A stretch of 59,493 nucleotides of DNA from Lachnospiraceae bacterium (GTDB lineage: Bacteria > Bacillota > Clostridia > Lachnospirales > Lachnospiraceae): assembly GCA_045651105.1 (NCBI GenBank), contig JAZRRW010000067.1:1-59493 (forward strand), in the 5' to 3' direction. Position numbers and translations under genes: made by a program. This document shows positions 9,166 to 19,903 of the stretch, piece after piece. Within the stretch, counting starts at the first letter, position 1. The number at the start of each line of letters is the position of its first letter. The notes beneath the pieces were generated by a model. The model was not told the origin of the DNA and searched no databases. It worked only from the letters and a program-made list of their open reading frames with translations.

Positions 9166-9225
9166 TGCATAACGTAACTTGTTGTTAACGTGTAAGGACC
9201 TGTTAAATTGCAAAGCACCTCACAC

Positions 9226-9261
9226 AGGGGCATTGTGACTCATACAAATCACAATGCCCCT
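9226..9261. terminator. Strong hairpin, probable shared terminator of the convergent small gene (+) and the long BMC operon (-)
   Basis: aggggcattgtga / tcacaatgcccct forms a perfect 13-bp stem with a 10-nt loop. Confidence 0.55.
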
Positions 9262-9276
9262 GTTGGACAGGATGCT

Positions 9277-9441
9277 TTAATAACTGCTGCCCGGTCTGGA
9301 GGCGCAGCCACCCTGTGTAATAGAAGAACCATAGTATACCACCGGCTTCTCAATGCGGTAGGCCGGTGCCGCCTTTAAAGCAGCGCCCTCCTTTAAACCA
9401 AGATAAAATTTCAGAGATGTCCCTGCCTGTCCTTTTATCGT
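9277..9441 (-). pseudogene. Internal remnant of an SGNH/GDSL-type hydrolase gene
   Basis: A minus-strand frame with no start codon is open for about 54 codons. It reads ...LKFYLGLKEGAALKAAPAYRIEKPVVYYGSSITQGGCASRPGSSY*, and YGSSITQG is the catalytic-serine block of SGNH esterases. The length is far too short for a full enzyme. Confidence 0.4.
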
Positions 9442-9468
9442 TCATGCTATCGTACCTCAAAGGTAGAT

Positions 9469-9534: not shown

Positions 9535-9555
9535 ATTAATGACGTCCTCACTTCA

Positions 9556-9876
9556 TTATAATAAATGTACCGGCATTTCTTCTGTCAGTCGACAAGCTTC
9601 ATTGCCTTTCTTTTGCTTTATCGGCTCTGCAGCCGGTGCTTTCTTTTCCTTCTTTACAGTCGTTTTCTCAACTGCTGCCTTCTTTGCTGCTGGCTTTCTG
9701 GTTGTGGTCGTCTTCGTCGCCTTTACAGGTGCGGTCACATCCTTTTCAGGTTGGGACTGCTCCTCCACAACTGTAGTCTTCGGCTCCACCTGTACCTCTT
9801 CGATTACTGCCTTCTTGGTGGTTGCTTCTGCATTTGCCTTTGATGCTCTTTTAATACTTCCTGCTCCTACTGCCAT
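9556..9876 (-). CDS. Lys/Thr/Ala/Glu-rich low-complexity protein (106 aa), candidate ParA partner
   Basis: The ATG overlaps the ParA stop (ATATGGCAGTAG), with AAGGAG upstream. It has 19 Lys, many Glu/Thr/Ala and no Phe, Trp or Tyr, including PAAKKAAVEKTTVKKEKKAPAAEP. Plus-strand ORFs over the same span are mirror artefacts. Confidence 0.6.
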   Translation of the reverse strand: MAVGAGSIKRASKANAEATTKKAVIEEVQVEPKTTVVEEQSQPEKDVTAPVKATKTTTTRKPAAKKAAVEKTTVKKEKKAPAAEPIKQKKGNEACRLTEEMPVHLL

Positions 9877-10658
9877 ATGCTATCAATCTCCTTTGCAAGC
9901 TCCATATATTCTCCGGCGCTTCGTGCCTTTGCTTTGTGAACCAGCACAGGCTTACTGTCGTCCTGAGCCCACTCCACTTCACTGTCCACGCGGATAATAT
10001 TCTGAAAAACGTGTACATTGTCTGCGGAACGTAAGGTTTCGCATGTTTGCTTGTAATAATTTTTACGGGCGTCTACCTTGGTAATAGCTATGCCCAAAAG
10101 CTCCAAATTCTCATTGATGCGGCGAACATCCTCCAAAAATTCGAACATGTTGGCCACACCGAACAATCCCCACGGACTGGCCTCTACCGGCATGATCACA
10201 TAGTTTGATGCGCAGAGTATATTCATAACCCAGCCACCCAGTGTAGGAGGCGCATCTATCAGAATATAGTCATACAGATTAGATTCCTTAATACTTTTCA
10301 GACAGTTTTTTAAAATAAACTCCCTCTGCCATTTGGTAAAAAGCTCGTACTCCATACCACTCATCAACATGGAAGAGGGTATGAGATCCAGATTTTCATA
10401 AGGAGTAGGGATAATGTACTCCTTTAAGTCCTCCTGCTTTTTGATGGCATGATAAAGATTGCGTTCACTGGCTGCCAGCTCCAACACTTGGTCCTCTGTA
10501 AAAAAGGACAGGGACAGATTCAGCTGCATATCTCCGTCTATCAAAAGAACCTTCCTTCCCATGGTTGCCAAAGAGTAACCTATATTCGCACAGGAAGTGG
10601 TTTTGCCACTACCGCCTTTATTGTTTGCAAATGCTATGATTTTAGTTTTCTTCTCCAT
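9867..10658 (-). CDS. ParA/MinD-family P-loop ATPase
   Basis: MEKKTKIIAFANNKGGSGKTT carries the deviant Walker A KGGxGKT with the signature Lys. LLIDGDMQ and ILIDAPP motifs are present. Start chosen at M16. Its ATG lies inside the last codons of the DeoR gene (17-nt overlap). Confidence 0.85.
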   Translation of the reverse strand: MEKKTKIIAFANNKGGSGKTTSCANIGYSLATMGRKVLLIDGDMQLNLSLSFFTEDQVLELAASERNLYHAIKKQEDLKEYIIPTPYENLDLIPSSMLMSGMEYELFTKWQREFILKNCLKSIKESNLYDYILIDAPPTLGGWVMNILCASNYVIMPVEASPWGLFGVANMFEFLEDVRRINENLELLGIAITKVDARKNYYKQTCETLRSADNVHVFQNIIRVDSEVEWAQDDSKPVLVHKAKARSAGEYMELAKEIDSIWQ

Positions 10659-11412
10659 ACAGACATTCAATCCCTTTATCCCTAAAATATTCCATCCATG
10701 CATCGGATGGACGTATGTCAGTTACTATCGTGTCAATATCTCTGATTTCACAAATCTGTGAAAAGGCTGCTTTGTCGAATTTGGTATGGTCTACAGCCAA
10801 TATTCTCATACCGGCTGAACGAAGCATGCTCTTTTTAACCTGTGAAAACATTTCATTGGTATCGGTAATGCCCTTATTCATATCGATTCCCTTACAGGAC
10901 ATTATGACCTTGTCAGCATTAAAAGTACTGATACTTTCTACTGCCTTCGGACCTACCAGTACCAGATAATTCTCCCAAATGGAGCCCCCGGTGGAAATAA
11001 CATTCCAACCCGGTACCTCCGCTACCTCTAACAGAACTTCTACGGAGTTAGTTACGATTGTAAGTCGGTTTTTGTCTTTGATAGCATTCACGATTGCTAC
11101 GGTAGTAGTACTTGGGTCCAGAATAATATGGTCGCCGTCAGCAATCATTCCGGCAACTATCTCTGCAATCATGCGTTTTCCACGCATATTTTTCTTTTTG
11201 CGGACGCTGAAAGGCATTTCCGTGTTACTATTTTCCACTAAAACGGCTCCACCATATGTCTTGGTCGCCAAGCCCATTTTTTCTAATTTGTCTAAGTCTC
11301 TTCTGATGGTTTCCTCAGACACATCAAACTGCTCGCTCAACTCACCTACTACTACACGTTTTTCGTCTTGAAGCTTCTCCAGTATCAGATTTCTTCTTTC
11401 TACTGCTAACAT
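10642..11412 (-). CDS. DeoR-family transcriptional regulator (sugar-phosphate sensing)
   Basis: 256 aa. N-terminal HTH RRNLILEKLQDEKRVVVGELSEQFDVSEETIRRDLDKLE plus a DeoR C-terminal sensor domain. Starts 17 nt after the PduT-like gene. Confidence 0.9.
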   Translation of the reverse strand: MLAVERRNLILEKLQDEKRVVVGELSEQFDVSEETIRRDLDKLEKMGLATKTYGGAVLVENSNTEMPFSVRKKKNMRGKRMIAEIVAGMIADGDHIILDPSTTTVAIVNAIKDKNRLTIVTNSVEVLLEVAEVPGWNVISTGGSIWENYLVLVGPKAVESISTFNADKVIMSCKGIDMNKGITDTNEMFSQVKKSMLRSAGMRILAVDHTKFDKAAFSQICEIRDIDTIVTDIRPSDAWMEYFRDKGIECLYGEEN

Positions 11413-11429: not shown

Positions 11430-11978
11430 CTATAAAATAGACTTACAAAGCTGCGCGTCAGGACGTGCAATAACGGAAGAATCCAAAAACATGCCCCTTT
11501 CACCTACACTTACCTTTGCCTTCTGAATAGCCGCCTCACAGGCTGCCACTTCACCGGTAATCAACATGTAGGACTTGCCACACATACCCTTTGCAATACG
11601 CAGCTCAATGAGCTTGACAATTGCAGTCTTGGCTGCAATGTCGGCTGCTACAATAATAGATGCTGCGTCATAAGTCTCTAAAATGCCCAATGCATTAATT
11701 TCATCAATCTGGCTGCTACCGTAAATAGCAGGAAAAATGGATGCGTCCGGATTGCCCAACACGAAGCTTCCGATTAATTCGTCCGGTCTGGTTTTTTCTG
11801 CACGGTCTATAGCCGCTCTTACCGCACTTAAATCACCGGCAATCAGGGCAATGTACTTGCCCGGACATACGGTCTGCGCCTCTAACAATTCCACTTCAGA
11901 GGTCTTTACCATCTGATCTGCTGCAGTAATACCTGCTGAAACTGTCTTAAATTCAATCATTCCGATTGCTCTAGCCAT
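11430..11978 (-). CDS. pduT: BMC-T tandem-domain shell protein, PduT-like
   Basis: 182 aa with two BMC repeats (AIGMIEFKT..., ALGILETYD...). A Cys in TVCPGKY sits at the position of the PduT Fe-S ligand. Confidence 0.8.
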   Translation of the reverse strand: MARAIGMIEFKTVSAGITAADQMVKTSEVELLEAQTVCPGKYIALIAGDLSAVRAAIDRAEKTRPDELIGSFVLGNPDASIFPAIYGSSQIDEINALGILETYDAASIIVAADIAAKTAIVKLIELRIAKGMCGKSYMLITGEVAACEAAIQKAKVSVGERGMFLDSSVIARPDAQLCKSIL

Positions 11979-11988
11979 GTTCTATCCT

Positions 11989-13308
11989 CTACTTAATGAT
12001 AATATAATCCTTAGTTACTTCCTGTACAACACCTGAAATAGATGCATGAATATTTACAGACAGACCCTCTGCTGCCTTACCTACCACATCACCGGCAGAC
12101 ACAGCATCTCCCACGCTTACCACTGTAGCTGCAGGTGCACCAATATGCTGAGACAACATAATTTTAACTTCCTTTGCATTTCTGGAAGAATCATCCAGCT
12201 TTGCAGGCTTATCATACTCTCCTAAGCCCAATCTTGCAAGCAGTCTGCCCTCCCAGGCTCTGCGGTATTCTCGAGAAGCCTTTACCGGTGCCGCCTCTAC
12301 TACAGGAGGCTTAATACTTGCCTTACGGAGACCGTTTTTGTACTCGTTAATCATAGTACGCGGAGAAAGTCCCTGCGGACAACTAAATAACTCACATAAA
12401 CCGCAGGCGCTGCAGAACATGGTATCCAAGAATGGTTCTAAATCCTGAAAATCCTGATTGGCTGCCGCCCTCATAAATAAATGAGGCTGTATCGGGTAAC
12501 CCAACGCAAATCTAGGGCAAAGATCCGTACATGTCTGACACTGACAACAGCTGGACGCTGCCCGTGCCACCGCGGTTTTAAACCGATTGGTCTTGCGGTA
12601 AACAAGCGTATGATCCTCCGGCAATACAATAATAGCGTTGGTAGTCTTGGTCACAGGCTGATAATCCTTGCCAAAGCTTCCCATCATAGGACCACCCAAC
12701 AAGTACACCGGCTTCTTGGTAGTGATACCTCCGGCCATGGCTACCACATCACGAATACGCATACCGATTGGTACACGAACGGTAATCGGGTTCGCCACTT
12801 CACCTACTACGGATACGTACTTCTCTGTAACTGGCTTGCCTTCCCAGACTGCCCGGTAAATATTGTACACGGTCTCTACGTTAAATACGGCCACACCGCT
12901 TTCAATCGGCAGACCGCCGGGACGCACTACTCTGCCTGTAGCTTCATAAATAAGGATGACTTCATCCCCCATTGGATATGCTCCCGGTAATTTATGTATA
13001 CGCATCATTGGGAACTCGTCCATATACTCTTCCAGTGCCTCAATGGTGCTCTTATATTCTTCTTTAATTCCAATAATCGCTTCTTTTGCCTGTACCGTTT
13101 CGGCAAGCAAGGCAAATGCTTTTAATATCTCATGTGCATGAACCTTTAACAGCTGTCTGTGCAGCTTTAACAATGGCTCGCATTCCGCACAGTTCATGAG
13201 AATGGTATCAGCCTTGTCGGAAAGCTTGCCGTAGGTAGGAAAACCTGCTCCGCCTGCTCCTACGATACCATTCTCTTTTAAGATTTTGCTTAAATTAGCA
13301 ATTTCCAT
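11989..13308 (-). CDS. pduS: PduS-like RnfC-type flavo-iron-sulfur protein
   Basis: 439 aa. GAGGAGFPT nucleotide/FMN motif, an SLBB-like region, and two Cys clusters CCQCQTCTDLCP and CSACGLCELFSCP. Confidence 0.8.
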   Translation of the reverse strand: MEIANLSKILKENGIVGAGGAGFPTYGKLSDKADTILMNCAECEPLLKLHRQLLKVHAHEILKAFALLAETVQAKEAIIGIKEEYKSTIEALEEYMDEFPMMRIHKLPGAYPMGDEVILIYEATGRVVRPGGLPIESGVAVFNVETVYNIYRAVWEGKPVTEKYVSVVGEVANPITVRVPIGMRIRDVVAMAGGITTKKPVYLLGGPMMGSFGKDYQPVTKTTNAIIVLPEDHTLVYRKTNRFKTAVARAASSCCQCQTCTDLCPRFALGYPIQPHLFMRAAANQDFQDLEPFLDTMFCSACGLCELFSCPQGLSPRTMINEYKNGLRKASIKPPVVEAAPVKASREYRRAWEGRLLARLGLGEYDKPAKLDDSSRNAKEVKIMLSQHIGAPAATVVSVGDAVSAGDVVGKAAEGLSVNIHASISGVVQEVTKDYIIIK

Positions 13309-13314
13309 AACCTG

Positions 13315-13590
13315 TTACCCCAATTTCCCGATGTCATCGATGATACCTACAATAGCGGCATCAATAGGAGAATCCGGCAACCCGCAGCCAATACGTGCTG
13401 CGCTGCCCTGAGCTACCAATACATACTCACCGATTCCGGCACCGATGTTGTCAATAGCTACCAGTCTGTTATGCTCTCCGTTCATCATACTAATCGGCTC
13501 AATTACCATGAACTTGTTACCAACCAGGTTATCCTGCTTGCGTGTGGAAACGATACTTCCTATTACTTTTCCAATAATCATTTCTATCAC
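13315..13590 (-). CDS. BMC-P pentameric vertex protein (EutN/CcmL/PduN family)
   Basis: 91 aa. MIIGKVIGSIVSTRK...LVAIDNIGAG...VLVAQGSAAR is typical of EutN/PduN. Confidence 0.9.
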   Translation of the reverse strand: MIEMIIGKVIGSIVSTRKQDNLVGNKFMVIEPISMMNGEHNRLVAIDNIGAGIGEYVLVAQGSAARIGCGLPDSPIDAAIVGIIDDIGKLG

Positions 13591-13614
13591 TCGTTTCTGA
13601 CTGTGTTTAAACTT

Positions 13615-14268
13615 CTATTTAATGACTACTACCTTGTCACCCTGCTTGATTTCACTGGCATTGGCTTCATCTGTGTCAATGTGCATTTCCAGCGTAAAGC
13701 TTTCATCTACACGGATTTTAACATTGTTAAAGGTAGTACCACGCTCATTTTCTACTTTTACGCTTACATAGTCGCCGTCATTTACTCCGCAAGCAGCGGC
13801 ATCAGCCGGTGACATGTGAATATGTCTGGCTGCTACGATACAGCCTTCGTTACAATAAACAGCTCCCTTAGGACCAACAATCGCGATAGGGGCAGAGCCT
13901 TTTACATCTCCTGATTCACGGATTGGCACATTGATGCCCAGCTTTCTGGCATCTGTGCTGCTGATCTCTACCTGTGTACTCTTACGGGCAGGACCTAACA
14001 CTCTGACATTTTCGATTGCACGCAGCTTTAAACCTACGATGGTACAGCATTCATTGCAGGCAAACTGTCCGCCCATCAGCTCCTTCTTCTTGGTAAGCTG
14101 ATATCCCGGACCAAACAAAGCCTCCACATGCTCCTGTGATAAATGAATGTGTCTGTTGCTGACACCTACAGGAACCAAAAATCCATTGCCCTTTTCCTTT
14201 TCCTGCTGCATACAGGATAATACTAACTTGGTTAAGGCTTCCAATTCATTTCTTTCCATGTTGTTCAC
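13615..14268 (-). CDS. pduL: Phosphate acyltransferase PduL with N-terminal encapsulation-type helix
   Basis: 217 aa. Duplicated PduL motif VPVGVSNRHIHLS / IVAARHIHMS. N-terminus reads ELEALTKLVLSCMQQ. Confidence 0.9.
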   Translation of the reverse strand: MNNMERNELEALTKLVLSCMQQEKEKGNGFLVPVGVSNRHIHLSQEHVEALFGPGYQLTKKKELMGGQFACNECCTIVGLKLRAIENVRVLGPARKSTQVEISSTDARKLGINVPIRESGDVKGSAPIAIVGPKGAVYCNEGCIVAARHIHMSPADAAACGVNDGDYVSVKVENERGTTFNNVKIRVDESFTLEMHIDTDEANASEIKQGDKVVVIK

Positions 14269-14292
14269 CTGTTACCCTTCTAATATTTGATA

Positions 14293-14342
14293 GTCAGCTA
14301 TAAAAAGTACAGCTGACCGGGAGCACCGAAAACGGTGCCCCC
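14293..14342 (-). promoter_or_regulatory. Two adjacent intercistronic hairpins after a BMC-H gene (RNA stabiliser or partial attenuator)
   Basis: gggagcaccg-aaaa-cggtgccccc and gtcagct-N11-agctgac. No clear U-run follows either on the minus strand. Confidence 0.4.
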
Positions 14343-14371
14343 AGCAACATATATATGTATGTCACCTATAC

Positions 14372-14650
14372 TTATTTGATAGCAGGAAGAATACCTTCAA
14401 CATCTGTGTGTGGACGTGGAATTACGTGCTGAGCTACTAACTCACCAAGTCTTTCAGCGTTCATAGCGCCTGCTTCTACTGCAGACTTAACTGCACCTAC
14501 ATCACCACGTACCATAACGGTTACTAAACCGGAACCGATCTTCTCAGTACCTACTAAAGTAACGTTTGCTGCCTTACACATTGTATCAGCTGCCTCGATA
14601 GCTGCTGTAAGTCCTCTTGTTTCTACCATTCCTAATGCTTCCTGTGCCAT
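14372..14650 (-). CDS. BMC-H hexameric shell protein (PduA/EutM-like)
   Basis: 92 aa. [27 protein letters not shown]...[11 protein letters not shown]. Confidence 0.9.
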
Positions 14651-14716
14651 AGTTTTATCCTCCTTACTTATGTGCCAGAATTTGATAATATAAATTGTTA
14701 TGCTGCTTGCACAGCT

Positions 14717-14745
14717 ATTATACTGTATTTCTACAGTTATTTCCA
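14717..14745 (-). promoter_or_regulatory. Possible internal sigma-A promoter inside the BMC operon (TGGAAA-N17-TATAAT)
   Basis: On the minus strand, TGGAAA sits at 14745..14740 and TATAAT at 14722..14717. They lie in the 163-nt gap between two shell genes. Confidence 0.3.
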
Positions 14746-14813
14746 GATATTTTTATCTGTTTCCGGATTTATTTGCAGCTTTTTATTGCTGCAGGCGGCC
14801 TTACTGCCCAATA

Positions 14814-15113
14814 TTACTTTTTCTGCAGTCTCTTTGCGCTCTTTGCCACCAGCTTGCGTGTCTCCTCAGCAGGAGCAGCAATAATACCTGATGCCGCCAA
14901 AATATGATTATTTGCATTGCAAATGCCTGCAGCAGCTTCCACTGCTGCCTTTACGTCAGACACGGTACCTTCCACAATAATAGTAACCAATCGGCCACCC
15001 ATTTTGCGTTCCCAGGTAACCAGCTTTACATCTGCCGCCTTACACATTGCATCTAAAGAATCCATTGCAGCAACCACACCGGAAACCTCAATCAGTCCGT
15101 ATGAGCCACCCAT
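14814..15113 (-). CDS. BMC-H shell protein with basic C-terminal tail
   Basis: 99 aa. YGLIEVSGVVAAMDSLDAMCKAADV...IIVEGTVSDVK. The tail reads RKLVAKSAKRLQKK. Confidence 0.85.
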   Translation of the reverse strand: MGGSYGLIEVSGVVAAMDSLDAMCKAADVKLVTWERKMGGRLVTIIVEGTVSDVKAAVEAAAGICNANNHILAASGIIAAPAEETRKLVAKSAKRLQKK

Positions 15114-15118
15114 AGTTC

Positions 15119-15403
15119 TTATGCCTCAGGGAATCCCGGAAGAATCTTCTCAACGTCTGCATGTGGACGTGGAATAACGTGCTGAGCTACCAATTCACCA
15201 AGACGGCTTGCTGCTGCCGCACCGGATTCTACAGCTGCCTTCACAGCGCCTACATCACCACGTACCATAACTGTTACCAAACCGGAACCAATCTTCTCAG
15301 TACCTACTAAAGTAACCTCAGCAGACTTTGTCATTGCATCTGCAGCGTCAATTGCTGCTGTAAGTCCTCTTGTTTCTACCATTCCTAATGCTTCTTTTGC
15401 CAT
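15119..15403 (-). CDS. BMC-H hexameric shell protein (PduA/EutM-like)
   Basis: 94 aa, a close paralog of the 14372..14650 product. Confidence 0.9.
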
Positions 15404-15455
15404 TTTAATAGCCTCTCTTTCTTATAAAAACTCTTAATATAATATACTTTAATTT

Positions 15456-15773
15456 TTAATTTGTGTCAAATCCACAAATGTTTAACATTTTTAATGTGTC
15501 ACTGGTTGGTCTTGGGATTATATGACTTTGTACAACCCCTGTTGTCCTCTTTGCCATTTCAATTCCGGCTTCTACAGCTGCGGTTACATCCTCTACGCTG
15601 CCGCGGAACTTTATGGTTACCAAAAGCGGTACCTTCAAGGTTTCTGCATTTGCAGGCTTGTTCTTGTCAAAAGGCTCCAATGTAACATTGGCTGCCTTAC
15701 AGCCTGCGTCTGCTGCCATGAATGCACAAACAACTCCGTAGACCTCCAGGATACCTACTGCTCTTTCATCCAT
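15456..15773 (-). CDS. BMC-H variant shell protein with an internal insertion
   Basis: 105 aa. AVGILEVYGVVCAFMAADAGCKAANV, then the insert EPFDKNKPANAETLKVP, then IKFRGSVEDVTAAVEAG. Confidence 0.8.
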   Translation of the reverse strand: MDERAVGILEVYGVVCAFMAADAGCKAANVTLEPFDKNKPANAETLKVPLLVTIKFRGSVEDVTAAVEAGIEMAKRTTGVVQSHIIPRPTSDTLKMLNICGFDTN

Positions 15774-15807
15774 ATCAGCTTTCCTCTCTTAAAGTAACAC
15801 TTTCCGA

Positions 15808-17025
15808 TTAATCCATGAAAACTGCAACCTTAAGTCCGGTCATTGCAAGATTCTTCTTGTATGCTTCGTTAATCTCGCTTAACGGATATCTGTCAGTAAT
15901 CAGCTCGCTCATAGGAAGACCGATTGCCTTTGCACTCTTTAAGAACTCAAAGGTAGTTGCATAATCACGAAGTGTGTATACCCAGCTTCCTACGGTTGTG
16001 ATTTCCTTAGAGCAGATGTCAAAGTGAGGGTTGATGGTTGCATCACCGCCATTGATGAAGAAACCAAGCTCGCACAGACCGCCGCCCTGACGGATAAACT
16101 TGTAAATATTTGAGTGACCTACAGGAGAACCTGTACACTGGAATGCAAAGTCTGCAAGATGACCTTCAAACTTGTCATAAATGCCCTTTGCCATTTCCTC
16201 TGCACCCTTGTAATCCTTAAAGTTTACACTATCGCTTGCGCCAAGTCTCTTTGCAAACTCGAGACGGCCTTCATTACCATCAACTGCAATAATGTTGCCG
16301 ATACCCATAGTATGTAAAATAGCAATACAAATCAAACCGATCGGTCCACAGCCCTGTACTACAACGCGGCTGTTAAATCTTAAGATGCCTGTGGTCTTTG
16401 CACGCTCTACTGCGTGGATTAAAACGGCACATGGCTCGATTAAGATACGGGAATCCAAATCCAAATCACTTACGTTAAAGAATGTGGAACCCTTACGGCT
16501 AATCAGGATGTAATCTGCAAACCAGCCGTTAAGATGAATATCATCATCTGGAACCAGACCGTATACTTCCGCACCGTTACCAACGTTCTGCTTATTTAAG
16601 TCAAACATGGTGATGTCCGGGTCATCCTTGAAAATCATACAGGTAACAATCTTGTCACCAACCTTAACATCCTTGCCTGCGCTGTCCTTTTTGACATTCT
16701 TACCCATCTTTACGATTTCACCGGTACCTTCATGTCCTAAAGCTACAGGGATAAGACCAAATGGGTCGCGCTTGTATTCGTGAGCATCTGTACCACAGAT
16801 ACCACAGCCCTCAACCTTAACGAGGATGTCGTCATCGCCAACCTCCGGCATTGGGTATTCCTTAATTTCTACAGTTTCAAGAGCGGTAAGCATAGCAACA
16901 TGTGCTGTCTTAGGAATCTCCAGACTGCCTTTGGAAGCTACTACGTTCGCTGCAGGAGCAGAACCGCTTAACTGGCTTAATACCTGCTTTACAATAGCTT
17001 CAACCTGAGAACTATTCATATCCAT
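15808..17025 (-). CDS. Zn-dependent medium-chain (MDR) alcohol dehydrogenase with N-terminal encapsulation-type helix
   Basis: GCGICGTDAHE zinc motif and VQGCGPIGL Rossmann motif. Start set at the ATG at 17025, after AGGAGG (MDMNSSQVEAIVKQVLSQL). The longer ORF-track start would overlap the upstream gene. Confidence 0.85.
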   Translation of the reverse strand: MDMNSSQVEAIVKQVLSQLSGSAPAANVVASKGSLEIPKTAHVAMLTALETVEIKEYPMPEVGDDDILVKVEGCGICGTDAHEYKRDPFGLIPVALGHEGTGEIVKMGKNVKKDSAGKDVKVGDKIVTCMIFKDDPDITMFDLNKQNVGNGAEVYGLVPDDDIHLNGWFADYILISRKGSTFFNVSDLDLDSRILIEPCAVLIHAVERAKTTGILRFNSRVVVQGCGPIGLICIAILHTMGIGNIIAVDGNEGRLEFAKRLGASDSVNFKDYKGAEEMAKGIYDKFEGHLADFAFQCTGSPVGHSNIYKFIRQGGGLCELGFFINGGDATINPHFDICSKEITTVGSWVYTLRDYATTFEFLKSAKAIGLPMSELITDRYPLSEINEAYKKNLAMTGLKVAVFMD

Positions 17026-17041
17026 TATATTTTCCTCCTGT

Positions 17042-18433
17042 CTATCTGATACACAGACTGTCTGACATCGTACAGCGTCTGCTCTTTGTAAATGTGGAAG
17101 CACTGGTCAGACCCTCACCTGTACGGCTGGCAATGGTAAAGGTTGGATAACCTTCTCCGCCAAAACCAAGTGCTGCATAGGACGGACCGTTCTTTACTAA
17201 GATTGCCGTATCCATTGCTCTGGCATACTCGGTAATTCTGTCTACATTCTTGGAATGAATATGTGCAGAGTGGCGGTTGCCATGCTCTAACCAAACAGCG
17301 TCTGCTACAGCTTCCTTAAAGTCCTTAGCCCTTACAATACCAAGGATCGGCATCATCAGCTCTTCTGCAATAAGCGGATGCTCCTTTGGACCTTCAAAGA
17401 TGATACAACGGATATTGTCCGGTGCCTCTACACCTACCATGCCAAGCAATACCTTGGCGCTTCTGCCTACACACTTACGATTTAAAGCACCCTTTTCATT
17501 GAAAACAGTCTTTACTAATTTGTCCTGAACTTCCTTGCTTGCCAGGTAGCAACCCTGCTCTTCAATCATGTACTTCATCAGCTGGTCGCAAATTGCATCA
17601 ACTGCAACTACTTCCTTCTCTGCAATACATGGCAGGTTATTATCAAAGGTACATCCGTTTATGATGTCCTCTGCTGCTTTTCTGACATCAGCAGTCTCAT
17701 CAACCAATGCCGGCGGATTACCTGCACCTGCACCGATACCACGCTTACCGCTGGACAATACGGCTGTTACTACACCCGGACCACCGGTAGCTACCAGTAA
17801 CGGAATATCCTTGTGCTTCATCATGACTGCACTGGAGTCCAAGGTTGGCTTTTCTACGGTACATGCAATGTTATCCGGACCGCCCGCTTCCAAAGAAGCC
17901 TCGTTCAACAGATTTACTGCGAAAATAGATGTCTTTACTGCCTGCGGATGTGGACTGAATACTACGGTATTGCCACCTGCAAGCATACCCATGGTGTTAC
18001 AGAGAACGGTCTCACTAGGATTGGTACAAGGAGTAATGGCGCCGATAACACCAAAAGGTCCTCTCTCTACCAAAGTAAGTCCTCTGTCACCGGACCATGC
18101 AGTAGTGGTAATGTCTTCTGTACCGGGTGTTTTCTCTGCTACTAAGAGGTGCTTCAAAATCTTGTCACCCACATTACCCATGCCGGTCTCATTTACGCCC
18201 ATGCGGGCAAATGTTTCTGCATTTTCTTTAATTTTAGTACGTATATTGGAAATAATTTTTTCACGCTGATCCATGGACATCATACGTACCACTTTTTGTG
18301 CTTCTTTTGCCTTTTCAATTGCGGTATTCATATCAGCATACACACCATGCATACCGGACACACTGCCCTGCAGCTGCATCTTTGCCATGACTTCACCGAC
18401 AATACTTTTAATCTGGCTTTCTGTCATTTCCAA
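17042..18433 (-). CDS. CoA-acylating aldehyde dehydrogenase (PduP/EutE-like) with N-terminal encapsulation-type helix
   Basis: 463 aa. Length and motifs fit the EutE/PduP family (GAITPCTNP, catalytic Cys in NNLPCIAEKE). N-terminus reads ESQIKSIVGEVMAKM. Confidence 0.9.
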   Translation of the reverse strand: MEMTESQIKSIVGEVMAKMQLQGSVSGMHGVYADMNTAIEKAKEAQKVVRMMSMDQREKIISNIRTKIKENAETFARMGVNETGMGNVGDKILKHLLVAEKTPGTEDITTTAWSGDRGLTLVERGPFGVIGAITPCTNPSETVLCNTMGMLAGGNTVVFSPHPQAVKTSIFAVNLLNEASLEAGGPDNIACTVEKPTLDSSAVMMKHKDIPLLVATGGPGVVTAVLSSGKRGIGAGAGNPPALVDETADVRKAAEDIINGCTFDNNLPCIAEKEVVAVDAICDQLMKYMIEEQGCYLASKEVQDKLVKTVFNEKGALNRKCVGRSAKVLLGMVGVEAPDNIRCIIFEGPKEHPLIAEELMMPILGIVRAKDFKEAVADAVWLEHGNRHSAHIHSKNVDRITEYARAMDTAILVKNGPSYAALGFGGEGYPTFTIASRTGEGLTSASTFTKSRRCTMSDSLCIR

Positions 18434-18912
18434 GCTATCACTTCCTTTAATAAATTTTTACCGAAAGTGCCAAGATAGATATCCTGCTCTGCAGTACCTC
18501 CGCTGACACCAATTGCACCGATCATTACGTCATCTACAAATAGAGGCTCGCCTCCGCCAAAGATTACGATTTTGCCCTGATTGGTATGCTGAATACCATA
18601 CAGGGAACCACCCGGTGCCGCAAGCTCGGCAAGCTTTGCGGTTGACATTTGAAAAGCTACCGCAGTATAGGTCTTATTGACAGCGATATCATAACTGCCT
18701 ATGTACGCACCATCCATGCAATGCACTGCAACCGGCCTGCCGGATGCATCAGATACTGCTATGACTGCCTTTACACCTATACGTGCAGCTTCTGCCTCCA
18801 CCCTTTCCATCAGCTCTTTGGCAAGCTTCAGGTTCATGGAAGGAGCTGCCTTCACCTGTTTTAAAACTTCACGGACAATGCTTTCCATGTTATGTATTTC
18901 CATAGGAATCAC
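18424..18912 (-). CDS. DUF336 / GlcG / PduO-C-terminal-like heme-binding-fold protein with N-terminal encapsulation-type helix
   Basis: GVKAVIAVSDASGRPVA...AIGVSGGTAEQD. N-terminus reads MESIVREVLKQVK. The start is ambiguous (GTG at 18912, ATG at 18903 or 18888). There is a 10-nt overlap with the aldehyde dehydrogenase start. Confidence 0.75.
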   Translation of the reverse strand: MIPMEIHNMESIVREVLKQVKAAPSMNLKLAKELMERVEAEAARIGVKAVIAVSDASGRPVAVHCMDGAYIGSYDIAVNKTYTAVAFQMSTAKLAELAAPGGSLYGIQHTNQGKIVIFGGGEPLFVDDVMIGAIGVSGGTAEQDIYLGTFGKNLLKEVIAWK

Positions 18913-18936
18913 CTTGCCTTTCCTGAAACAGGATAT

Positions 18937-19791
18937 TTATTTCATGTTAGCAATTACATTCTTTACGATTTCAGCAATAGCAGCCTCATCTACCTTACCT
19001 TCGCCGCCACAGTCACAACCAAAGTTATATTCATAACCAGGGAACTTGCTGTAATCAGCGTGGCTACCGCAGCTGCCGCCACAGTTATGGCAGTTTGTTG
19101 TACCCTTGTTCAAGCAAACATTTGCAGGATGCTTACCAGGCATACCAAACTTACGACGGATTTCGTAAAGCTTCTTGATATTTTCCTTATCGAATTCCTT
19201 AGGACCGCCAAGCATTTTGGACTTGTACAGAAGCTCTGCATAGAACTCTAAGCTTTCCATCTTGTGATATGCTGCCATTAAGTCTGTGCTCCAGGTTAAT
19301 GCACCATGGTTCTCAAGCAGTACCGCATCAAAGTATGGAAGATACTTCTCTAAGTTATCAGGAATTTCCATAGTAGAAGGTGTACCGTACTCTGCGATCG
19401 GTACGCAACCTAAGGAAATAACTGCTTCCGGCATAATCGGCTGTGTTAAAGGAATACCTGCAATTGCAAAAGATGTTGCAAAAGTAGGATGAGCATGTAC
19501 TACAGCACCTACATCAGGGCGCTTCTCGTATACACGCATATGCATCTTGATTTCAGAAGATGGCTTGAAGCCCTTATTTGCCTGAATCACATTACCCTTA
19601 GCATCTACCTTACAGATGTATTCCGGTGTCATAAAGCCCTTGGATACGCCTGTTGGTGTGCAAAGGAATTCATTGTCGTTCAGCTTTACGGAAATATTTC
19701 CATCATTAGCTGCAACCATGTTACGGTTGTAAATTCTTCTGCCAATTTCACAAATTTGTTTCTTGATTTCCATTTCGTTAATCATGGACAA
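18937..19791 (-). CDS. Class II aldolase (fuculose/rhamnulose-1-phosphate aldolase family) with Cys-rich linker and C-terminal encapsulation-type helix
   Basis: 284 aa. NDGNISV, HAHPTFA and ENHGALTW motifs. The tail reads C-x7-C-x2-C-x3-C...C-x-C, then DEAAIAEIVKNVIANMK. Confidence 0.9.
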   Translation of the reverse strand: MSMINEMEIKKQICEIGRRIYNRNMVAANDGNISVKLNDNEFLCTPTGVSKGFMTPEYICKVDAKGNVIQANKGFKPSSEIKMHMRVYEKRPDVGAVVHAHPTFATSFAIAGIPLTQPIMPEAVISLGCVPIAEYGTPSTMEIPDNLEKYLPYFDAVLLENHGALTWSTDLMAAYHKMESLEFYAELLYKSKMLGGPKEFDKENIKKLYEIRRKFGMPGKHPANVCLNKGTTNCHNCGGSCGSHADYSKFPGYEYNFGCDCGGEGKVDEAAIAEIVKNVIANMK

Positions 19792-19874: not shown

Positions 19875-19903
19875 ATTATATGACTGTTTGTGTGGTTTGT
19901 CAA
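19875..19903 (-). promoter_or_regulatory. Consensus sigma-A promoter of the BMC operon (TTGACA-N17-TATAAT)
   Basis: On the minus strand, TTGACA sits at 19903..19898 and TATAAT at 19880..19875, about 80 nt upstream of the aldolase ATG. The promoter is flanked by CCACACAAA repeats. Confidence 0.6.

Follow-up and report, generated by a model that had tools for sequence, protein, structure and literature searches.

The genes at the locus

We analyzed a 59,493-nt stretch of DNA (hereafter the window) from the Lachnospiraceae bacterium contig JAZRRW010000067.1 (GCA_045651105.1), in which a ParA-type ATPase and a small lysine-rich protein, here termed the partner, are encoded downstream of the shell genes of a bacterial microcompartment (BMC). 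The genes lie on the minus strand in the order PduT, DeoR, ParA and a 106-aa Lys-rich open reading frame (ORF), and the last three overlap. The features on which the argument turns are the following:

11430..19791, minus strand: PVM-like (aldolase-type) metabolosome operon, from ORFs and Pfam; its order recurs in 57 related loci
11430-11978, minus strand: PduT-like ORF with two BMC domains (Pfam)
10642..11412, minus strand: DeoR-family regulator (HTH_DeoR 6e-18, DeoRC 1.3e-46), first in the conserved DeoR-ParA-partner unit
9867..10658, minus strand: ParA/Soj-type ATPase, 263 aa (AAA_31 1.8e-55)
9556..9876, minus strand: partner protein, 106 aa plus stop, a putative adaptor (McdB-like or "mini-ParB"), conserved downstream of ParA

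The stop of PduT, the last shell gene, at 11430 is followed after a gap of 17 nt by the DeoR gene; the ParA ATG is located inside the end of DeoR with an overlap of 17 nt, and the partner ATG and the ParA stop lie in a shared stretch of 10 nt (ATATGGCAGTAG). The ParA start lies 772 nt downstream of PduT, with DeoR as the sole gene between them. These positions, like the Walker A motif and the partner composition described below, agree throughout with those given in the initial annotation of this DNA. That annotation had also held that no terminator intervenes between PduT and DeoR, and a pattern scan of the coding strand indeed recovered neither a consensus terminator nor a consensus promoter in the 17-nt gap of the window, nor in three relatives with PduT-DeoR gaps of 227-362 nt.

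The metabolosome operon encodes, in order, a class II aldolase, an HbpS-like protein, an acylating aldehyde dehydrogenase, a Zn alcohol dehydrogenase, four BMC-H proteins, PduL, EutN/BMC-P, a PduS-like protein and PduT, with the aldolase, HbpS-like, aldehyde dehydrogenase, alcohol dehydrogenase, PduL, PduS and PduT proteins identified through Pfam. Directly upstream of it lie rhaA, rhaB and the gene for an AraC-type regulator. With its class II aldolase, acylating aldehyde dehydrogenase, PduL, BMC-H, BMC-P and BMC-T proteins and DeoR, and with neither a glycyl-radical enzyme nor a B12 dehydratase, the locus is of the "PVM-like" type, in which a DeoR regulator is usual (Axen 2014, PMC4207490; Sutter 2021). 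The comparisons below draw on 80 loci, one genome per species, all of them Lachnospiraceae-type and found through ParA.

The ATPase and its partner protein

Within the two proteins, five segments could be delineated:

10596..10625, minus strand: deviant Walker A NNKGGSGKTT, ParA residues 12-21, with K14 the signature lysine and K19 the P-loop lysine; N12-K19 invariant in 81/81
10062..10073, minus strand: D-A-R-K, ParA residues 196-199; D196, R198 and K199 invariant among orthologs; candidate non-specific DNA-binding residues
9838..9876, minus strand: N-terminal peptide of the partner, MAVGAGSIKRASK, with V3, G4, S7 and R10 invariant; proposed ParA-ATPase-stimulating peptide
9601..9837, minus strand: hypervariable low-complexity spacer of the partner, K/A/E/T/V/P-rich and aromatic-free, delineated by the length spread in the family, composition and a predicted local distance difference test score (pLDDT) of ~48-60
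9559..9600, minus strand: C-terminal segment of the partner, EACRLTEEMPVHLL, with the motif [DE]-[LM]-P-x-[Y/H/F]-L-[LM]; proposed shell-docking motif

The initial annotation had named profile searches as a check on both proteins, and these return an ATPase of the AAA_31/CbiA type with a Soj-like fold and, for the partner, no family in Pfam or NCBIfam. The ParA matches AAA_31 with 188 bits against a cut-off of 27 and CbiA at 4e-20 with 72 bits; it is of the short type, without a helix-turn-helix (HTH) domain in Pfam. In NCBIfam, no model reaches its cut-off for this protein, and no McdA model is found among the matches. Its 263-aa start at 10658 is favored over the upstream ATG at 10703, as 263-aa homologs align with it at 100% coverage. 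By sequence, the nearest solved structures are those of chromosomal Soj/ParA proteins, namely 8RAY (3e-32), H. pylori Soj 6IUB (6e-28) and T. thermophilus Soj 1WCV (6e-27). Among 81 orthologs, which are 68-95% identical, 80 of the 263 positions are invariant, including the Walker A' residues D41 and D43 and the Walker B residue D135. The Arg of the D-x-R-K motif aligns with that of the D-x-R of the ParA 8RAY, and we take this region to be equivalent to that of the DNA-binding Arg189 of B. subtilis Soj. Because the Walker A, A', B and D-x-R-K motifs are invariant in all 81 orthologs, the protein looks like an active ATPase with a Soj-like fold that may bind the nucleoid.

We also observed four tryptophans in this ATPase, at residues 110, 143, 163 and 230 (9967-10331, minus strand; F..WQRE, GGWVMN, PWG and EW.QD), that are invariant in 81/81 sequences. 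At the first of these sites the aligned 8RAY and 6IUB have no Trp, and Trp110 may match the "central tryptophan in region 1" that has been reported in McdA of the alpha type and of beta type 2.

The partner contains 19 Lys, 17 Ala, 13 Glu and 13 Thr, and no Phe, Trp or Tyr, giving a net charge of +8 and an isoelectric point of 9.7; with a grand average of hydropathy of -0.72, it falls on the disordered side of the charge-hydropathy boundary. Disorder prediction, another check that had been named at the outset, points the same way: AlphaFold2, run with an alignment of 31 sequences, gives a mean pLDDT of 59.7, a predicted template modeling score of 0.16 and a single helix spanning residues 5-18. 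No HTH, ParB_N or other DNA-specific domain was found in the window partner by Pfam.

The conservation of the partner is concentrated at its two ends. The N-terminal consensus is M-[S/P/A]-V-G-[A/K/T]-G-S-I-K-R-A-A (MxVGxGSIKRA), with Lys or Arg at position 9 in 60 of 68 sequences, so that the N-terminus is charged, as in McdB-like adaptors. We consider the G-x-G-S-I-K-R-A peptide to resemble the N-terminal peptide of ParB that activates Soj. The C-terminal consensus is [D/E]-[L/M]-P-[V/I]-[Y/H]-L-[L/M], in which all 72 sequences share Pro at -5 and Leu at -2, while position -3 is Tyr in 41 and His in 31 of them. Acidic residues lie within five residues of position -3: the window has E-E at -8/-7, and of the 72 sequences, 49 have E and 6 have D at -7. 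Across all the loci and the window, 91 of 92 matches to the C-terminal motif lie on partner ORFs, and no other protein of these loci was found to carry it. The spacer between the two ends accounts for the variation in overall length within the family (61-232 aa) and consists of 20% K, 19% A, 12% E and 11% T, with essentially no aromatic residues. Taken together, these invariant ends flanking a variable middle and the predicted structure give the partner the look of a disordered adaptor.

The lack of aromatic residues, which the initial annotation had emphasized, holds for the window and is lineage-specific. In 234 retrieved members of the family, position -3 is Tyr in 142, His in 68, Phe in 21 and Trp in 1, i.e. 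Tyr, Phe or Trp in 164 of the 234; the window has His there and its closest species-level relative (L001) has Tyr. The aromatic-free state of the window is therefore the His variant of a usually aromatic position.

The partner is widespread and real as a gene. An exhaustive profile search recovered ~550 cluster representatives of the family, 100 of them at E < 1e-10; among the 150 matches listed, lengths range from 70 to 158 aa and nearly all alignments run end to end. A small ORF with matching termini follows ParA in 75 of the 80 loci, contrary to the lack of conservation that the initial annotation had named as a refuting outcome; in two more loci it is cut by contig ends and three are without it. 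Further, a strain pair is informative in this respect: between the window (9601-9837, minus strand) and L088 (1773-2174), ParA is identical and DeoR 98% identical, and the DNA of the spacer is a mosaic over its central ~200 nt, with indels of 3, 12 and 66 nt that are all in frame and flanks that are almost identical. The recurrence of an ORF with the same termini and the in-frame nature of these indels together indicate that the small ORF is real rather than a chance occurrence. The mosaic itself points to recombination or to very relaxed or diversifying selection. A longer plus-strand ORF at 9539-9997 was rejected as a by-product of the biased composition. A scan of metagenomes with the partner profile yielded 270 pattern matches, of which just 9 were confirmed, because tblastn copes poorly with a low-complexity query; those with enough sequence were BMC-linked.

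Two partner orthologs depart from this architecture in that a ParB/Noc-type N-terminal domain replaces the low-complexity spacer (L076 10779-11231; L064 4873-5430). The domain matches PF02195 at 1.2e-12 and 5e-7, with Noc 7OL9 and Spo0J 1VZ0 as its nearest entries in PDB; its GERR box is degenerate (GYKR, GSKR), and it is flanked by the usual N-terminal peptide and an LPxYLL-type ending. Both belong to stand-alone pairs, and they are the only 2 of the 80 partners at the orthologous position that have a ParB_N domain. Their retention of a ParB/Noc N-terminal domain suggests a ParB ancestor for the partner family, and is at the same time compatible with a cargo other than a microcompartment.

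Genomic contexts of the pair and further features of the window

The 80 loci fall into the following contexts:

57/80: microcompartment operon-DeoR-ParA-partner
3/80 (L067, L068, L074): pair adjacent to a GRM-type microcompartment (with glycyl-radical enzyme, activase and PduV), arranged in two further gene orders
4/80: DeoR-ParA-partner, with no shell gene within 9-10 kb
3/80: DeoR-ParA, with the upstream sequence missing
3/80: too truncated for judgement
7/80: stand-alone pair among housekeeping genes
3/80: ParA without partner, two of them directly beside rhaB-rhaA or a rhamnose AraC gene

A ParA of this clade followed by a low-complexity ORF thus co-occurs with an aldolase-type BMC in 57 of 80 species, which answers in the affirmative, for Lachnospiraceae-type genomes, the neighborhood question raised by the initial annotation. 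Proximity to microcompartment or rhamnose genes is found repeatedly, under several gene orders and for two types of organelle. Look-ups starting from divergent partner proteins led to some loci that are BMC-linked and have PduV, and to others in which the pair stands alone. In a tree of the ParA proteins, the PVM-linked loci form one clade, with the cases that have only DeoR nested inside it; the sister clade comprises the stand-alone pairs, the orphan ParA genes and the GRM-linked loci, and these last branch off at two distinct places.

Two of these contexts merit description in their own right. First, the partner-less ParA genes are intact (L078 9998-13538, L075 9998-11758, L077 9968-10774); that of L078 lies directly upstream of rhaB-rhaA and that of L075 upstream of the gene for the rhamnose AraC-type regulator, with no shell genes within 10 kb. 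Second, a PduV/EutP GTPase is encoded alongside the ParA-partner pair in the GRM-type relatives (L067 17051-17605; L068 9556-9999; L085 168-593; L086 1-116), which thus hold two candidate positioning systems side by side.

Among the genes themselves the coupling is tight: the DeoR and ParA frames overlap in 61 of 65 loci, as do those of ParA and the partner in 70 of 74, such that DeoR-ParA-partner is a tightly coupled, conserved unit, and the PduT-DeoR distance in the linked loci ranges from 10 to 1388 nt (median 65). It might hence be supposed that ParA and the partner are regulatory accessories of DeoR, which control its DNA occupancy or titrate it and move no cargo, in the manner in which Soj and Spo0J influence DnaA. 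Along with the frequent DeoR/ParA overlap, the persistence of the trio where there is no adjacent BMC would fit such a role. However, stand-alone and GRM-type loci have the pair but no DeoR gene with it, the ParA is of the short type that lacks an HTH, and an invariant docking-type C-terminal motif on a disordered adaptor is unexpected for the partner of a regulator; we accordingly regard this explanation as quite improbable.

A ParA gene with a small downstream ORF is also the usual layout of a type Ib plasmid partition cassette, which raises the question of whether the pair is a partition module left behind by a plasmid or mobile element that had integrated. Against this, the best ParA from plasmids is 44% identical, the partner has no plasmid match, and no viral contig carries the pair or encodes a relative of the ParA; on these grounds a plasmid or phage origin was rejected. 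Further, as the initial annotation had noted, there are no parB, replication or mobile-element genes among the ten flanking genes scanned, all of which are housekeeping or regulatory, and a repeat scan found no parS-like or centromere-like array of direct or inverted repeats. As the pair also occupies the same position in 57 species with its catalytic residues invariant, this origin comes close to being refuted.

The window contains several other features that lie outside the pair. Upstream of the aldolase gene there is a candidate promoter for the metabolosome operon, found by pattern match alone:

19875..19903, minus strand: candidate operon promoter with a sigma-70-like consensus, TTGACA-17 nt-TATAAT, 12/12

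The class II aldolase bears a long extension in its C-terminal ~95 residues (18937-19230, minus strand), which includes a Cys-rich stretch (CLNKGTTNCHNCGGSCGSH...GCDCGGEG) and ends in an amphipathic segment, KVDEAAIAEIVKNVIANMK, that resembles an encapsulation peptide. Segments like it are present at the N-termini of the aldehyde dehydrogenase, alcohol dehydrogenase, PduL and HbpS-like proteins. The alcohol dehydrogenase ORF as called (15808-17103, minus strand) has a GTG start and overlaps the aldehyde dehydrogenase gene by ~60 nt. Its true start is likely to be an internal ATG at ~17028 giving MDMNSSQVEAIVKQ..., which is also where the encapsulation-peptide-like helix begins. Beyond the partner gene, a short ORF fragment at 9280-9445 (minus strand) ends in ...EKPVVYYGSSITQGGCASRPGSSY*; by our own reading it resembles the first block of a curtailed SGNH/GDSL hydrolase, presumably a pseudogene remnant. 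After it, at 9224-9263, comes an inverted repeat with perfect 15-nt arms around a loop of 10 nt. An Rfam scan of the window recovered a distant tRNA as its sole match.

A candidate positioning system for a catabolic microcompartment

Given the above, we lean, by a small degree, towards the view that the pair is a ParA-based, McdA/McdB-like system that positions the rhamnose/fucose metabolosome. Here, ParA-ATP dimers would coat the nucleoid, and the disordered partner would dock on the exterior of the shell via its C-terminal [DE]-[LM]-P-x-[Y/H]-L-L motif. The N-terminal peptide, with its invariant Arg10, would stimulate the ParA ATPase and so bring about a local clearing of ParA from the DNA, whereupon microcompartments bearing many copies of the adaptor would climb the surrounding ParA gradient in a diffusion ratchet. 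The predicted outcome is that the organelles are spaced apart and shared between daughter cells, with the overlapping reading frames perhaps coupling expression of the system to DeoR, the regulator of the locus. What the sequences show is the ATPase motifs, the three-part layout of the adaptor and the linkage in the genome; the biochemical steps are all inferred. Besides the invariant ATPase motifs, the adaptor layout, the overlap of the genes and the negative plasmid and viral searches described above, the following favor this proposal: the linkage of the pair to a BMC in 57 + 3 of 80 species-level genomes, with the three GRM-linked cases at separate places in the ParA tree; the additional BMC-linked loci recovered by independent look-ups from the partner; and the C-terminal combination of acidic residues with Tyr, His or Phe, which fits the published description of McdB-like proteins (PMC8359340; PMC11321042).

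The idea itself has precedents in the literature. ParA (PF01656) was listed among the ancillary genes of BMC loci (Axen 2014, PMC4207490), and putative McdAB-like pairs were then reported near non-carboxysome BMCs, with four examples that have a C-terminal Tyr in the last four residues (MacCready 2021, PMC8359340, section 2.9, Fig. 8f). The same was described for PDU and GRM loci, together with the observation that Tyr or Phe can replace the carboxysomal Trp (mBio review 2021, PMC8262871; Basalla 2024, PMC11321042, Fig. 4), and a 2025 review mentions EUT and PDU examples. The pairs reported in 2021-2024 near PDU, GRM and EUT loci are predictions, and because the concept is already published for such loci, the pair in the window is a member of a known, predicted class. 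Like them, it lies in or next to a metabolosome locus and comprises a ParA gene followed by a small ORF, and its partner shares with their adaptors a charged N-terminus, a disordered body and acidic residues near the C-terminal site. It differs in that those adaptors have Tyr or Phe in the last four or five residues, where the window copy has His, and in that it is found in a PVM-like locus, with an aldolase and no glycyl-radical enzyme, and is fused by overlap to a DeoR gene. The GRM-linked relatives (L067, L068, L074) probably belong to the published set.

Comparable likenesses extend to the McdA/McdB system of the alpha-carboxysome of Halothiobacillus neapolitanus, where, too, a ParA with the signature lysine is encoded beside shell genes. 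The McdB of that organism is likewise encoded immediately downstream and is ~100 aa long, almost fully disordered and free of coiled coils, with a charged N-terminus and, as is proposed for the partner, a short C-terminal docking motif. Unlike that system, the cargo here would be a catabolic metabolosome of a Gram-positive anaerobe, and the C-terminus has His or Tyr in place of the invariant Trp of carboxysomal McdB: the window partner has no Trp, and Trp occurs at -3 in just 1 of the 234 members. No sequence relationship of the partner to H. neapolitanus McdB was detected. Unlike Spo0J/ParB, the window partner has no ParB_N, HTH or dimerization domain, no parS was found, and the pair is not at the replication origin. 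Finally, PduV/EutP resembles the ParA in being a nucleotide-hydrolyzing protein encoded with metabolosomes and linked to the localization of the organelle, and it has been proposed to position Pdu microcompartments; it is the sole tested candidate for the spacing of catabolic microcompartments. It has an unrelated Ras-like GTPase fold and no adaptor gene, and the locus in the window does not encode it, although the GRM-type relatives have both it and the ParA-partner pair.

Several observations weigh against the positioning proposal. The chief weakness is the occurrence of the pair in contexts other than a BMC: in about a fifth of the sampled species (7 stand-alone, 4 with DeoR only, 3 partner-less) there is no BMC gene within 9-10 kb. 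As the PVM-linked loci form a single ParA clade, most of the 57 linked cases represent one ancient linkage that was kept. The sole McdA-like protein in PDB (Cyanothece, 6NON/6NOO) matches the ParA at 1e-12, far below Soj. We also scanned partner position -3 for covariation with all alignment columns of ParA, DeoR, the enzymes and the shell proteins; the highest-scoring columns lay in enzymes, and the Tyr/His alternation covaries with no shell-protein column more than with enzyme columns. At the homologous locus of C. phytofermentans, DeoR is a separate transcript induced ~2-fold, as against 15-87-fold for the shell operon (Petit 2013, PMC3557285), and expression of the pair may not track that of the shell genes; C. 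phytofermentans itself seems to be without the pair. The picture of a pair "welded" to the operon is at most a possible one, given this transcript and the spread of distances from PduT. Concerning experiments, the initial annotation knew of no ParA-based system demonstrated for a catabolic BMC; the literature concurs, as it offers predictions and no experimental data on such pairs, and in a 2026 study of Salmonella, McdAB, ParA and MinD were without effect on Pdu organelles (PMC12866334).

The stand-alone pairs do not by themselves refute positioning, because the mcdAB genes of carboxysomes, too, are frequently located apart from the shell operon (PMC7182216). The initial annotation had named as a refuting outcome that orthologs be found mainly away from BMC loci; such cases do not predominate, nor are they negligible. 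Its central proposal of a positioning and inheritance module thus draws strength from the conserved gene neighborhoods and the adaptor layout, and is qualified by the roughly one-fifth of species with the pair elsewhere.

Those same cases could instead mean that we are dealing with a ParA/mini-ParB module for some other cargo, such as a chromosomal region, a protein assembly or a cell-cycle factor, which came to adjoin the BMC by traveling with the DeoR gene. The stand-alone pairs among housekeeping genes have the same N- and C-terminal motifs, four loci retain the trio without a nearby BMC, and the two partner variants with a ParB/Noc-type domain point to an ancestry in chromosome partition. 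Moreover, the Lys/Ala/Pro-rich spacer resembles histone-H1-like DNA-binding tails, with one member of the family having a weak precomputed match to HC2 in Pfam. On the other hand, the BMC linkage recurs in three gene orders and with two types of BMC, neither an HTH nor another DNA-specific domain is present in the partner, no repeat of the parS kind was found, and the orphan ParA genes of the same clade also adjoin rhamnose genes. We therefore deem another cargo unlikely, if a serious contender.

Returning to the positioning of microcompartments, a bolder version would have the partner as a ParB-descended adaptor family recognizable by sequence, which kept the ParA-activating peptide, replaced the body with a fast-evolving spacer and gained a motif for docking on the shell hexamers of PVM-like and GRM organelles. 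We advance this tentatively and consider it somewhat unlikely; if true, McdB-like adaptors would be evolutionarily linked to ParB and a portable peptide for targeting metabolosome shells would be in hand.

With the concept already known as a prediction, what is new here is the definition, by sequence, of a large Lachnospiraceae family, along with the alternation of His and Tyr, the coupling to DeoR, the relatives that have a ParB_N domain and an estimate of how frequently it is linked to BMCs. The partner family, with ~550 cluster representatives, occurs commonly among Lachnospiraceae of the gut, and its functional ends are sharply delimited, which makes the question of how these organelles are spaced and inherited directly testable. 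In practical terms, a short shell-docking peptide would help to target proteins to the exterior of engineered microcompartments.

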